From the NCBI GenBank assembly GCA_025043315.1, contig GCA_025043315.1_4324.1: a stretch of DNA of 46,202 bases, one strand, 5' to 3'. Both the position numbers and the translations under genes were made by a program. The stretch's first letter is position 1. Each line of letters opens with the position of its first letter. Shown here in pieces: positions 3,805 to 11,630 of this stretch. Origin of the DNA: a phage. The notes under the pieces were generated by a model. That model saw only the letters and a list, made by a program, of their open reading frames with translations. It was not told the origin of the DNA and searched no databases.

Positions 3805-4391
3805 TTTATAGAATGACTTAACAAAAGCCTCAGGTGTTACACCACGCTTGCAAGGCTTAATTAAATCCTTAATGATGAACCAGTGGAAAGTCTTCATATC
3901 AAAGACCAGTCGTTCACATGCGATCACATATTAAGTGAAGCTCATTCTTTCTTCTCCCGTTCCATCCACATTTTAGCCAGCTCGTAATAAGCTATCGCCT
4001 CCTCGACCTTTTCAGCTTCATCCTGCATTCTCTTACACCACTGGCTTGGTGATTCGTAGTTATCCATTAGTAAATTATAACCTCATCTTCTGAAAGGTAG
4101 ATATCCTCGCCATTCTTGTTCTTTACGATGTAGCAGCTACCATCATCACTCATCTCTGCGAAGAACACATCGCCACGCTGAATTAGCGCCACATAATCAC
4201 TCTCGCCAACATAAACAATCTTAATCATAGAATCACCTTACTTAAATTATCGTTCGTTAGAATGCGTTTTAGCGTCGTCTACGCCTGCCGAAATTATGTA
4301 GATAGTGGCGAAGCCTAGAGACCAAAGCAACCACGGTAGAGCCTCAACAAAAACATCGCCCATCATTAACTCCGTGTGCATATCGTTTACC

Positions 4392-6099: not shown

Positions 6100-6124
6100 A
6101 TTTATTGTTTAGCAATTCGTGCTA
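6082..6124 (-). promoter_or_regulatory. palindromic promoter module (TAGCAATTCGTGCTA 6110-6124; TATGAT 6082-6087)
   Basis: 22-bp spacer; leader CCATATCAACAACGAAGAGG. Confidence 0.6.
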
Positions 6125-6499
6125 TTCACCGCTCAGGAGTGATTTAGCTTTCCGGTAGAACTCAATCGCCGCCTCCACCTCTTCTTCACTGTACCGTAAG
6201 TGGTATGGTAGTCTACTAGGGTGCTCACCATCGTAAGTTTTGAAGTTAGGTTGCCAGCTTAAATCCGTCAAGGCAGGGTTGACGTAAACCTTATCCCCAA
6301 TTAGACAGGTAACATTCATCTTATCGAGCTCTGGAATTAGCTTATCCTTAATCAATAGCATCATTCCATCGCGCCCCGCAAATGGTTTCAGCTTGCGAGC
6401 ACCTTCATATAGAGACCTGATGCCGACAACTCCTTTGCCGTTAACTCCCATTTTCCTGATGATTCTAATCAGTACACCAAGCTCATCACCATTATACAC
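6122..6499 (-). CDS. stand-alone paralog of the C-terminal domain of the 9708..11291 replication protein (GTG start)
   Basis: GKGVVGIRSLYEGARKLKPF...NVTCLIGDKVYVNPAL aligns by eye with residues ~465-525 of the 527 aa protein. Confidence 0.5.
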   Translation of the reverse strand: MYNGDELGVLIRIIRKMGVNGKGVVGIRSLYEGARKLKPFAGRDGMMLLIKDKLIPELDKMNVTCLIGDKVYVNPALTDLSWQPNFKTYDGEHPSRLPYHLRYSEEEVEAAIEFYRKAKSLLSGE

Positions 6500-6645
6500 C
6501 TCTGAGGTATCAATAGAGCCCCAAACGCCGTTGACTGTCGATACCCGTTAGCATTGATTGCAACCCGCAGTGGCGGCAGCCCATCCTGGATAGCGATATT
6601 CATAATCTGCTCGTCCGTCAGTTTATCCTCGTTAAAGTCAAACAT
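6484..6645 (-). pseudogene. N-terminal remnant of a second copy of the 9708..11291 gene, out of frame with 6122..6499
   Basis: 53-codon ORF MFDFNEDKLTDEQIMNIAIQDGLPPLRVAINANGYRQS... matches MFDFNEDKLSVEQVMAIAAADNLPPLRVAINANGYRQS of the full-length gene; same TAATG context. Confidence 0.55.
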
Positions 6646-7124
6646 TACTTAATCTCCTCAATAATTAAACGGTAATCCTTAATGGCCTTCATGGCGGCTG
6701 CAAGCGCCTCACCTTCATACTCAGAAAGGTCTGGCATCACCTTAGAAATCTTAGCCTTGAACTCAGTGATTGCCTCATCCTTGATCGCGTTGTTGGTCTT
6801 CTTTCTAATCCCAATGTTTGCAGTTCCAGGAATCAGCTTAATAACCAGCTTCTTGTTTCCAGCTAGAGTGGTTTCACCAAACTCACTATCACCCTCATCC
6901 TCATCATAATGGTGAGTTGCCTTCAGCCCTGCATCTCTCAACTCAGGCATACGAGCCGTTGTATTGTAGATGTATGAGCTCTTAAGCTTTTGTAGACCAC
7001 CCTCCTCGGCGCCAATAAGGCTCTCAATCTTGTTGAGTGTCACGCTGATCTGCTTATCCTCAGAATTAAGCGCTGCTTTTACCATCTCACGAATCACTTG
7101 GCCTAATGTTACCTTCTTGTTCAT
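6645..7124 (-). CDS. hypothetical protein, first gene of the leftward early operon
   Basis: 159 aa ORF with GAGAGGAG SD and canonical sigma70 promoter upstream. Confidence 0.6.
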   Translation of the reverse strand: MNKKVTLGQVIREMVKAALNSEDKQISVTLNKIESLIGAEEGGLQKLKSSYIYNTTARMPELRDAGLKATHHYDEDEGDSEFGETTLAGNKKLVIKLIPGTANIGIRKKTNNAIKDEAITEFKAKISKVMPDLSEYEGEALAAAMKAIKDYRLIIEEIK

Positions 7125-7155: not shown

Positions 7156-7184
7156 ATCATATACCGACTTACACATGTAGTCAA
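7156..7184 (-). promoter_or_regulatory. canonical sigma70-type promoter TTGACT-N17-TATGAT
   Basis: -35 at 7179-7184 and -10 at 7156-7161 on minus strand; leader AAACGAGAGGAG resembles palindromic-promoter leaders. Confidence 0.5.
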
Positions 7185-7204: not shown

Positions 7205-7540
7205 TGGGGGCGTTACGCGAAATGGCACGCTAGCTAAGCTATAGCTCAATGTAGTTTCGTGTCGTGCGTGTAACGAGGTAAATTGGCTAGATGGCTCCAT
7301 AATGGCTAAATCTCACATAAAATAGCAACAATGTATTCTGATGGGAAAAAACATATAGATATCGCCGGGACCCCCGTTACACGACTTACATACAATAATA
7401 ATAATAATAATAATAATAATAGAAAGAAGATATATATATATATTAAGCACTTATAGCGTAAGTCAGGGCGTATCTGCGCGTAACTAGCGTAACGATAGGC
7501 GCTGGCTTACATCGCGCTACGTCGGTTACGCGTCAGCTCA
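7205..7540. promoter_or_regulatory. regulatory region A: GTTACG-type repeated boxes, (AAT)9 at 7394-7421, (AT)7 at 7430-7443; homologous to region 25515-25850
   Basis: shared blocks AAATGGCA, AGCTATAGCTCAATGTA, AGGGCGTAT, ACATCG-N-TCGGTTACG with region B. Confidence 0.55.
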
Positions 7541-7791: not shown

Positions 7792-8340
7792 ATGGATATG
7801 AAGATTGATAAAGATGAATTGCGTCACGAAAGCGCACTGATTGGTCGAGTTAGTGACCCTGAAATTTGGAATTCGATATTTGAATATGATGGGGAAAACC
7901 TAATAAGAAAAGCAACAACATCAAGTAGAGCGAGGGCTGGAGATGTTGTGGGGTGCCTTGATAGGGGTTACTTAACTGTCAGGTTCAATAAAAAGCTATA
8001 CTTTGTTCATAGGATCGTATGGGAAATGCATAATGGACCCATTCCTGATGGAATGTATATTGATCACATAAATCACAAGAGAGATGATAACGGATTGGTC
8101 AATTTAAGGCTTGTAACAAGAATTGAAAATCAAAGAAACATGTCAATTAGCAAAAGGAATAGTAGCGGCTTTGTTGGTGTCTCATGGAGTAAGGTGCACA
8201 ATAAGTGGGAGGTTAGAATAGGAGTGGGGAATGGCACGAAAGACATGTATTTAGGAAGATATGATGCCATTGATGAAGCAGTTGCAGTTAGAAAGAAAGC
8301 GGAGTTAGATATTGGGTATCACAAAAATCACGGAGAATAG
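7792..8340 (+). CDS. HNH homing endonuclease with AP2-like DNA-binding domain
   Basis: HNH-type motif IDHINHKRDDNGLVNLRLVTRIENQRN, then SSGFVGVSW...KWEVRI; paralog of 18683..19213. Confidence 0.75.
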   Translation: MDMKIDKDELRHESALIGRVSDPEIWNSIFEYDGENLIRKATTSSRARAGDVVGCLDRGYLTVRFNKKLYFVHRIVWEMHNGPIPDGMYIDHINHKRDDNGLVNLRLVTRIENQRNMSISKRNSSGFVGVSWSKVHNKWEVRIGVGNGTKDMYLGRYDAIDEAVAVRKKAELDIGYHKNHGE

Positions 8341-9707: not shown

Positions 9708-11291
9708 ATGTTTGATTTCAACGAAGATAAGCTATCTGTTGAACAGGTTATGGCAATTGCTGCCGCAGACAACCTCCCACCCCTGCGCGTGGCTATCAAT
9801 GCTAATGGATATCGCCAGTCTCAATCATTCTGGAAGGCTCCGGTCGAGATTGATGCAGCTAATGATAAGTATCCTGTAATCTCACTAGGAAATGATATTG
9901 ATGTTGTTGGCAAGCTGTCAGCCAATATTGCTCGCTCAGTTCAGTTTCCGGAGTCTTCAGCTTATATGCACTTCCTGGGGTGTATTTCCGCTGCAATGCT
10001 GGGTCGATTTACTGTTGAGTATCATGGAACTCAGCAGCCGACTTCGCTGTACGTCGTAACGAGTCAGCCACCATCGACCGGTAAATCAGCAATTAACTCA
10101 CTCTCCATTGCTCCAATGATCGCCGAGACTGAGCGACTGAACGAGGTGCGCAAGCGTGAGCGCAAAAAGATTATGGCCAAGCTATCCGCATTATCCAAAG
10201 AGATGAAACAGGAGAAATCTCCGTCAGAGATGGCTTCACTTTTTGAAGAGAAAGAGGAGTTAGAGGAAAAACTCGAGAAACTTTGTGATATCGTATTCCC
10301 GGTATCAGATACCACACCTGAAGGTCTTGCGCGAATAAACAACCGCCAGGGCAACTTTGCGGTAATTTCTGACGAAGCGACGAGTGTTAACTCACTGCTT
10401 GGCATGACCTATGGAGATGGCTCTAAGAAAACGAACAGCGAACTTGTGCTTAAAGCATGGGATGCTGGTAACGTATCTATCGCGCGTGCGAACGCAGAGA
10501 ACAACATGAGCTTCGTTGCTATGGGTTGCATATCGGTAATTGCGCAGGATGAAACAATCAATGCCATCATGAACGCTGGGGCGCGTGGCATTGGCGTATC
10601 GGAACGTTTCCTTTTGGTCCGCGAGAAGTCATTCCTGGGCGAACGTGTATTCGTTGATGAGAATGGAGACTCAACTTACGAGCCAATTGATGATGGACTA
10701 AAGGCTGATTACTTCCGCTTAGTTCATGAGATAATGAGTGAGCAAGATGTTAAGCTGACAGTAAGCAACTCAGCGATGAAATATCTCAACCGTGCTCGTC
10801 AGGAGATGGAACCTCACCTTGCTGACGGCGGAAAGTATTCGCACACAATGTTGCGCGGCGCTCTTGGTAAGTTCGATAAGCAGGCTATCAGGATTGCAGC
10901 CGTTCTTCACACAGTTCGTAACTGGTTCAACCCAAATGGCGGTAGTCCGCAAAAGTCCAGAGAGATTGATCTCGACACCATGCAAGAGGCTGTAATTATG
11001 TTCCATGAACTGAGTAAGACTTATCTGTCATCTGCAAACGCTGCTGGGCATGCTGGCGACAATGCAGAGATGAATAAGCTGATTGATATTCTGATTAAGC
11101 AAGGTAAGAGCGGTAAAGGTGTTGTTGGTATTCGTTCCCTGTACGAAGCTGCTCGCAAGGTTAAGCCATTCGAGGCTCAGGCGGGAGTGATGACGAAGAT
11201 TAAAGATCACTTGCTGCCAATGCTTGATGAGAAAAACTACACGTGCCTGATTGGTGATAAAGTTTACATTAATCCACGACTATTGGGGTGA
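9708..11291 (+). CDS. P-loop NTPase replication protein (primase/helicase-associated), C-terminal domain duplicated at 6122..6499
   Basis: Walker A-like SQPPSTGKSA and Walker B-like FAVISDE; 527 aa. Confidence 0.6.
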   Translation: MFDFNEDKLSVEQVMAIAAADNLPPLRVAINANGYRQSQSFWKAPVEIDAANDKYPVISLGNDIDVVGKLSANIARSVQFPESSAYMHFLGCISAAMLGRFTVEYHGTQQPTSLYVVTSQPPSTGKSAINSLSIAPMIAETERLNEVRKRERKKIMAKLSALSKEMKQEKSPSEMASLFEEKEELEEKLEKLCDIVFPVSDTTPEGLARINNRQGNFAVISDEATSVNSLLGMTYGDGSKKTNSELVLKAWDAGNVSIARANAENNMSFVAMGCISVIAQDETINAIMNAGARGIGVSERFLLVREKSFLGERVFVDENGDSTYEPIDDGLKADYFRLVHEIMSEQDVKLTVSNSAMKYLNRARQEMEPHLADGGKYSHTMLRGALGKFDKQAIRIAAVLHTVRNWFNPNGGSPQKSREIDLDTMQEAVIMFHELSKTYLSSANAAGHAGDNAEMNKLIDILIKQGKSGKGVVGIRSLYEAARKVKPFEAQAGVMTKIKDHLLPMLDEKNYTCLIGDKVYINPRLLG

Positions 11292-11294
11292 TGA

Positions 11295-11630
11295 GTGTTT
11301 ATTTTGGATTTGTACCGCTTCTGCGAGTCGTATTCATACTTCACGCGCCAGCATTTGGCGCGATTCATCTACCAACATAAGGACTCTCAGAGATTCAGTA
11401 AGGCGGCAGGATTATCGCATAGGGAGTTTTGCAGTGCGGCTTCAAAGGAGTTCTGCGCGAAGATGCTTAGTGCTGGTTACATTGATGGTAAGTGCGGCGA
11501 GTTTGTTAGCAAGGGTAGTTTGAAAAGGCCATTTGGCTTCAACTTTGAGGCACTTAGTGGGTATGAGAGCAAGTACATAAAAGAGATGATGAACATAGGA
11601 AAAATGACGGACGACGAGTTATTTAGATAA
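11295..11630 (+). CDS. hypothetical protein
   Basis: 111 aa ORF ending at the convergent terminator. Confidence 0.45.
   Translation: MFILDLYRFCESYSYFTRQHLARFIYQHKDSQRFSKAAGLSHREFCSAASKEFCAKMLSAGYIDGKCGEFVSKGSLKRPFGFNFEALSGYESKYIKEMMNIGKMTDDELFR

Follow-up and report, generated by a model that had tools for sequence, protein, structure and literature searches.

In AAA+ and superfamily 6 (SF6) replication proteins, the terminal winged helix and the small N-terminal domains are recruitment or regulatory modules, as in MCM and ORC, and the winged helix of ORC/Cdc6 and RuvB is likewise a regulatory or recruitment module. Some shorter proteins, such as Tn5 Inh and papillomavirus E2-TR, keep the binding modules of a larger enzyme without its catalytic or effector part. 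Among the DUF3987 helicases, which were placed by Kazlauskas et al. in SF6 as distant relatives of MCM with a C-terminal winged helix (PMC4889955), the PriCT-DUF3987 protein AgaPH was biochemically shown to have 5'-3' helicase activity and to bind its primase-polymerase (PMC11724360). Here we describe a locus at positions 6122-6645 (minus strand) of a 46,202-nucleotide stretch of phage DNA (GenBank assembly GCA_025043315.1, contig GCA_025043315.1_4324.1; the window). The window belongs to a T1-like coliphage of the Drexlerviridae, subfamily Braunvirinae. The locus holds a split copy of PHROG 7327, a family of unknown function, which we call the mini gene, and it resembles both ends of the 527-aa DUF3987 helicase encoded at 9708..11291 of the same window.

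The closest described genes are the PHROG 7327 members of AugustePiccard (Bas01; bas01_0066, QXV76197.1), IME253 (HOR61_gp21) and DTL (HOS46_gp16). The window copy belongs to the same family, with 87-92% identity to its nearest members, and has in common with them both the position behind a DUF7174 gene and the architecture of N-terminal module, winged helix and tail, but it alone carries the 1-nt deletion at codon 42 that splits the gene. The mini protein shares its first ~42 residues and its C-terminal winged helix with the DUF3987 helicases (the 527-aa protein and AgaPH), whereas the DUF3987 AAA+ core and the Walker motifs are absent and a 48-aa tail is its own. The likeness to MCM, ORC/Cdc6 and RuvB is one of winged-helix topology, which in the parent helicase follows the AAA+ motor, and the structural matches are weak and not significant (E >= 0.1); in the mini protein the winged helix stands apart from the motor, on a gene of its own, and its binding of DNA or protein is putative. 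The likeness to Tn5 Inh and E2-TR, an analogy from general knowledge, is in the competitor or modulator logic that we propose for the mini protein, but those proteins come from the same gene as the full-length enzyme by alternative starts or splicing, whereas the mini gene is a separate, ancient and diverged paralog.

A single gene split by one missing T

Our reading, to which we give a probability of roughly 0.8, is that 6122-6645 is one gene, broken in this genome by a single lost T, and that it encodes an ATPase-less helicase paralog that would act as a non-catalytic modulator or decoy. Two open reading frames (ORFs) were found on the minus strand of this region. The first (6645..6469, 58 aa) starts MFDFNEDKLTDEQIMNIAIQDGLPPLRVAINANGYRQSTAF and is identical to the helicase at 32 of its residues 1-41 (78%, E 4e-21); an earlier note, made from the letters of the window alone, had seen this resemblance to the helicase N-terminus, although it described the ORF as 53 codons ending at 6484. 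The second (6499..6122, 125 aa, deposited as HCL7432451.1) is in the -1 frame relative to the first, overlaps it by 31 nt, and matches helicase residues 454-525 (46 of 72 identical, 64%, E 2e-28), beyond which 48 extra residues form a family-specific tail. The same note had proposed a C-terminal copy with a unique tail, and both are present, but the ~60 matched residues become ~72 and the 60-aa tail becomes 48 aa. Hidden Markov models (HMMs) of the N-terminal module and the winged helix, run against the 751 six-frame segments of the window, matched only the mini locus and the helicase locus (E 5e-31 and 4e-27 for the N-terminal module; 2e-45 and 3e-30 for the winged helix). Low complexity, an alternative that had been left to alignment, does not explain the similarity, which is real and far above chance. 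An inverted second copy without the ATPase core was thus rightly recognised from the letters: only the helicase ends were matched, no P-loop was present in any mini translation, and a Pfam search of an intact ortholog gave no match.

The two-ORF layout, in contrast to what the earlier note supposed, is not the native state. DNA alignment showed GGCGTTTTGGGG in AugustePiccard, DTL and the closest metagenome relative and GGCGTTTGGGG in the window, where the T run at 6523..6525 (codon 42) is TTT instead of TTTT (GGCGTTT[T]GGGG, codons F41/W42). With one T restored, a 174-aa ORF is obtained. An intact second copy, which the note suggested looking for in relatives, was found in AugustePiccard, where the orthologous locus is a single annotated coding sequence of 175 codons, in IME253 (174 aa) and in the nearest metagenome relative. 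With the ortholog as query, 116 of the 120 best clusters at 90% identity were 170-187 aa long and 69 exactly 174 aa, and the repaired protein was matched in a single frame in all 60 best of 128 phage records. The PHROG 7327 HMM aligned with the repaired protein over all of its 179 positions (1-179/179, E 5e-81), and with the two ORFs over positions 1-42 (E 2e-22) and 56-179 (E 1e-49), respectively; the one continuous ORF of about 165-190 aa that characterises the family is seen in the window only after the T is restored. One continuous gene had been named beforehand as the outcome that would speak against a truncated copy with a stand-alone domain, and a single ORF in the relatives with a 1-nt deletion in the window is what was observed.

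The features of the disrupted copy (6122..6645, minus strand), which was delimited with the HMMs and with DNA alignments to AugustePiccard, DTL and the metagenome relative, can be laid out as follows. The 5' fragment, the 58-aa ORF at 6469..6645, contains the native codons 1-41, which encode the N-terminal three-helix module (6523-6645), followed by 17 out-of-frame codons and TGA. The 3' fragment reads in the -1 frame, which is open from 6547 to 6122, and the 125-aa ORF starting at GTG 6499 is its mechanical reading; it includes the winged-helix module (6269-6484) and the family-specific tail (6125-6268). The 58-aa and 125-aa ORFs are annotated more correctly as the halves of one disrupted gene, not as a relic plus a stand-alone domain.

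The PHROG 7327 family is under purifying selection

Comparative analysis of the family, whose members are ~164-187 aa (174 aa in the close relatives of the window), showed that PHROG 7327 is a real gene under purifying selection and not a decaying remnant. The ratio of nonsynonymous to synonymous substitution rates (dN/dS) was 0.13-0.46 in pairwise comparisons of 11 orthologs, and, where an estimate was possible, stayed below 0.55 in the N-terminal module, the linker, the winged helix and the tail alike. Both the mini and the helicase copies are constrained to the same amino-acid pattern. The helicase-wide conserved residues that are also kept in the mini family are A18, A29-I30, N33-G34-Y35 and W42 in the N-terminal module, and K71-G72, R84, P88-F89, G91, L103, P105, L107, C114 and P124 in the winged helix. 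The helicase itself evolves under much stronger constraint (dN/dS 0.012-0.042), and the dN of the mini gene is about ten times as high.

Within a genome, the mini gene and the helicase share 67-74% DNA identity, with a proportion of synonymous differences (pS) of 0.7-1.0, which is saturated; the proportion of nonsynonymous differences (pN) is 0.13-0.24 in most genomes and 0.33-0.51 in the winged helix of three loci (L005, L006 and L008). The low identity of the paralogs together with the saturated synonymous sites indicates an old duplication without recent gene conversion. The likeness of the start contexts, for which TAATG had already been noticed at both copies, extends beyond it over ~15 nt (GAGGAGATTAAGTAATG at the mini gene and GGAGAGAAGTAATG at the helicase), and therefore the ribosome-binding site was part of the duplication. 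In a neighbour-joining tree of the concatenated modules with 94 tips, the 11 mini sequences were monophyletic. They were closest to window-type helicases, with 55-75% identity for most and 46% for one (L012), compared with a helicase-helicase median of 49%. The monophyly and the closeness to window-type helicases indicate a single origin inside the Drexlerviridae.

Sequence comparison supports a scenario in which the mini family would have arisen once, within this phage lineage, by duplication of the DUF3987 helicase gene plus its ribosome-binding site. Roughly codons 50-447, and with them the entire AAA+ core, would then have been lost in frame, leaving the N-terminal three-helix module, a ~10-residue connector and the winged helix, to which a new 48-aa tail, probably a disordered linker with one conserved helix, would have been added. 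In line with this architecture, the PHROG 2373 profile matched the mini protein only at positions 2-40 and 439-513. Lacking an AAA+ core, the mini protein cannot be a helicase, and it stands outside the DUF3987 helicase family since the defining core was tested for and is absent.

The parent paralog at 9708..11291 (plus strand) is intact and was identified by Pfam as DUF3987 (E 1e-41) and by PHROG 2373 as a DNA helicase, that is, an SF6, MCM-like enzyme. It carries Walker A (PPSTGKS, residues 121-127) and Walker B (ISDEA, residues 220-224), and the regions shared with the mini gene are its N-terminal module (9708-9833) and its winged helix (~11049-11288). The AlphaFold2 (AF2) model of the helicase was confident (predicted local distance difference test, pLDDT, 90.6; predicted template modelling score, pTM, 0.88), and its best Foldseek matches were MCM2-7 subunits (E 8e-6, probability 1.0), which agrees with the assignment by Kazlauskas et al. 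(PMC4889955). ATP-dependent unwinding by the 527-aa protein is predicted, by analogy with the distant member AgaPH, for which helicase activity was shown (PMC11724360).

In the helicase model, residues 11-41 form three short helices and residues 451-521 follow the winged-helix order H-E-H-H-E-E (H, helix; E, strand). The AF2 model of an intact mini member has the same order: three N-terminal helices (11-21, 25-33 and 36-41, as in the helicase) and a 10-residue connector precede H55-69, E73-75, H76-84, H95-110, E113-116 and E119-122, and the C-terminus is disordered at 130-154 and helical at 154-171. By Foldseek against BFVD, the mini model matched its orthologs and T1-like helicases.

Concerning the tail, a tblastn alignment that ran past the helicase stop into 11295..11630 raised the candidate that it had been copied from the gene downstream of the helicase. 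This was judged a spurious extension, and the tail HMM, run over every six-frame segment of the window, gave no match to the gene at 11295..11630. A 41-aa ORF at 3942-4067 (minus strand, phrog_1312) has a helix, AEKVEEAIAYYELAK, similar to EEEVEAAIEFYRKAK, the conserved terminal helix of the mini protein; its E value with the tail HMM within the window was 0.013, which may be chance.

Distribution and independent breaks of the mini gene

The mini gene was present in ~106-113 of 526 helicase-bearing phage records, about a fifth of the T1-like Drexlerviridae coliphage records, and 49 representatives in a library of 1.84 billion matched the mini profile, about ten of which were full-length clusters. 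Its distribution and sequence variation mark it as dispensable, fast-evolving and repeatedly lost.

Broken copies were found in several lineages. The IME542-type phage (L016 6001-6529) is another natural isolate with a broken mini gene, here too in the form of an N-terminal stub and a C-terminal ORF, but the lesions differ from that of the window and are independent: codon 34 is a stop and the frame shifts near codon 70; BFVD and UniProt list the pieces as separate proteins (A0A410T6F5, 35 aa; A0A410T6A7, 103 aa). In DTL (L002 ~6106-6110), an in-frame TAG at codon 141 leaves 140 aa (YEG*HASRLPYH, the asterisk marking the stop), a form that was found on 18 contigs, and in the vB_EcoS-12397 group (L005 ~6418-6423, 43 records) the stop is at the adjacent codon (VYE*EHPSRLPYH). 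These stops at codons 140/141 are independent in the two lineages, and the frame beyond them stays open and conserved to the normal stop. In several metagenome alleles a frameshift falls within codons 39-47, and in one it lies near codon 92.

Frameshifted alleles in public assemblies include P0281, P0282, P0288, P0283, P0295 with P0273, and P0275, three of which break within codons 39-43, at the TTTTGGGG tract that holds the deletion of the window. This tract is either a mutational hotspot or a sequencing-error hotspot.

Alternative explanations of the split

An exact 31-mer carrying the TTT of the window had 0 matches in viral_contigs, no other copy of the 1-nt deletion at codon 42 was found among the phage records and contigs searched, and ERR8651901 is the only sample with the 125-aa and 58-aa products. 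The split is present in two assemblies of this read set, the NCBI third-party annotation (TPA) record, which is a third-party Escherichia coli assembly, and Logan. The frameshift is probably genuine because these two independent assemblies share TTT. The repaired window copy has a dN/dS of 0.26-0.28 against DTL and AugustePiccard, and a recent inactivating mutation is most likely since the remainder of the gene shows no decay. We consider such a mutation about four times likelier than an error.

Several points weigh against our interpretation. Both assemblies that carry the frameshift come from the same reads, and other public assemblies also have indels near the T/G homopolymer, which fits a mutational or a sequencing-error hotspot. 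On the side of the protein, the AF2 model of the mini member was only moderate (pLDDT 68, pTM 0.57), and Foldseek searches of this model against the Protein Data Bank (PDB) gave weak winged-helix matches with E >= 0.1 (among them the winged helix of MCM8, ORC/Cdc6, RuvB and MukE; TM score 0.57 to the MCM8 target 6l0o). By sequence, no solved structure in the PDB was related to the mini profile, nor to the helicase or DUF7174, and we found no paper describing the PHROG 7327 protein or DUF7174; nor did literature searches on helicase escape mutants of Drexlerviridae, on early-gene transcriptomes or on phage-encoded truncated MCM winged-helix paralogs yield anything on the mini gene.

The first alternative, that the missing T is a sequencing or consensus error and the phage really has an intact 174-aa gene, is unlikely. 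It is consistent with the difference being one base in a homopolymer, TTTT to TTT, with the undecayed downstream frame of the repaired gene, and with the shared read set and the nearby indels mentioned above, which lie a few codons from the T/G run. However, two different assemblers made the same base call, and the mini gene is genuinely inactivated in curated genomes (IME542, DTL and the vB_EcoS group). In addition, a homopolymer of 4 nt is not error-prone on Illumina, the platform on which NCBI third-party pathogen assemblies are, as we assume, normally based.

This phage most likely makes no functional form of the protein. The earlier note had suggested GTG 6499 as the start of a C-terminal domain that may be produced by itself, and more generally the N-terminal stub and/or the winged helix plus tail could be made separately, the latter from this GTG or by reinitiation at ATG 6451, and each could have an activity of its own. 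The C-terminal frame is indeed open for 125 codons, the 58-aa stub retains its native ribosome-binding site and the overlap with DUF7174, ATG 6451 is 17 nt past the stop of the first ORF with AGGA just upstream, and similar pairs of N- and C-fragments exist in IME542 and in the metagenome pair P0295 and P0273. But the GTG is codon V50 of the intact gene and GAGG abuts it, leaving no Shine-Dalgarno spacing; a product started at ATG 6451 would miss helix 1 of the winged helix, and the IME542 remnant begins inside the domain. Moreover, each split allele is a singleton against a dominant one-piece form, and no sign of selection for the split state was seen, so that functional splitting is quite improbable.

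It is very improbable that the gene is a neutral, decaying duplication remnant, or that its conservation comes from DNA-level inverted repeats or gene conversion and not from the protein. The repeated breakage in different lineages, the lack of the gene in most Drexlerviridae and its ~10 times faster evolution than the helicase would fit a remnant, but the dN/dS of 0.13-0.46 across orthologs with near-saturated synonymous sites and the more than 100 full-length clusters do not. Recent gene conversion or recombinogenic inverted repeats between the copies were also rejected: the repeats, 110-210 nt long, are too diverged for homologous recombination, being only 67-74% identical with saturated pS.

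Finally, programmed -1 ribosomal frameshifting or transcriptional slippage that joins the frames is hardly credible, although the shift needed is -1, the frames overlap and a T run is followed by a G run: programmed frameshifting is excluded because the junction ACG GCG TTT GGG GCT has no X XXY YYZ slippery heptamer, as had been noted from the letters, and the two-frame layout is not conserved, the relatives all being single-frame and thus without a conserved recoding signal, and a run of three T is far too short for transcriptional slippage.

Proposed function of the intact protein

Judging by selection on its coding sequence, the mini protein appears to be translated from a conserved operon position. 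We propose that the intact protein, as the ATPase-less paralog of the helicase, would be non-catalytic and would display the two interaction surfaces of the helicase, its N-terminal module and winged helix. With the same two surfaces, it would compete with, or bridge to, the partner of the helicase. Candidates for this partner are the primase, a host factor and DNA, be it an origin, an operator or the adjacent control region. Such a protein would be a dispensable modulator, adaptor or decoy and not a core replication protein. A fast-evolving, optional and repeatedly lost gene under purifying selection has the profile typical of accessory regulators or host-interaction genes.

A more specific version is doubtful: the intact protein might be a mimic of the helicase termini that titrates or redirects the primase, the GCGTAAC-rich control region described below or a host defence sensor for the phage helicase, with the repeated, independent knock-outs reflecting conditional selection and not neutral loss. 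The TTTTGGGG indels at codons 40-43, the stops at codons 140/141 and the IME542 lesions could then, for example, be escapes from a host system triggered by the protein.

The locus is largely explained as a frameshifted allele of a known family; what is new, to a modest degree, is the origin of that family as an ATPase-less paralog of the helicase. This finding gives the uncharacterised PHROG 7327 an origin and a domain logic, in which two peripheral modules are kept, and points to the N-terminal module and winged helix as the partner-binding surfaces of the helicase.

Genomic context of the mini gene

The nearest relatives at the mini locus were DTL (92% DNA identity) and AugustePiccard/Bas01 (88%). 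Immediately upstream is the DUF7174 gene (6645..7124, minus strand, 159 aa; Pfam PF23796, E 3e-47), whose TAA stop overlaps the ATG of the mini gene in TAATG; in every examined locus with the mini gene, DUF7174 was located directly upstream with overlapping stop and start. A predicted sigma-70-like promoter (7156..7184, minus strand; TTGACT-17-TATGAT, 10/12), found by consensus scan only, lies upstream of this operon. The mini gene is part of the leftward operon, and across the 670-bp divergent intergenic region, an early control region, the helicase is part of the opposite operon.

Four of the ten GCGTAAC/GTTACGC motifs of the window are located at 7212-7531 (with 7394-7445), whereas ~4 would be expected in the whole window, and degenerate copies are at 7268, 7375 and 7456. 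The motifs are in both orientations and flank (AAT)10 and (AT)7 microsatellites between the DUF7174/mini and helicase-side operons. When the intergenic repeat motifs were compared with the divergence of the mini protein, the cluster was kept in AugustePiccard and DTL, IME253 had GTGTAAC, and the other genomes showed no clear pattern. The cluster could be an operator or an origin-like element.

The first gene of the rightward operon (7792-8340, plus strand) encodes a homing endonuclease of 182 aa with HNH_3 and AP2-like domains, which is probably a mobile insertion because nothing equivalent is annotated there in AugustePiccard or DTL. Mosaicism was also observed between the two loci: the synonymous substitution rate (dS) to DTL and AugustePiccard is 0.19-0.24 at the mini locus and 0.74-0.86 at the helicase locus, and this contrast indicates that the two loci have different histories. 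In a relative without the mini gene (L019 1275-2026, minus strand), the ORF that comes after DUF7174 at this overlapping junction is unrelated and 67 aa long but still begins MFDLDE, an arrangement that suggests module exchange exactly at the start-codon junction.

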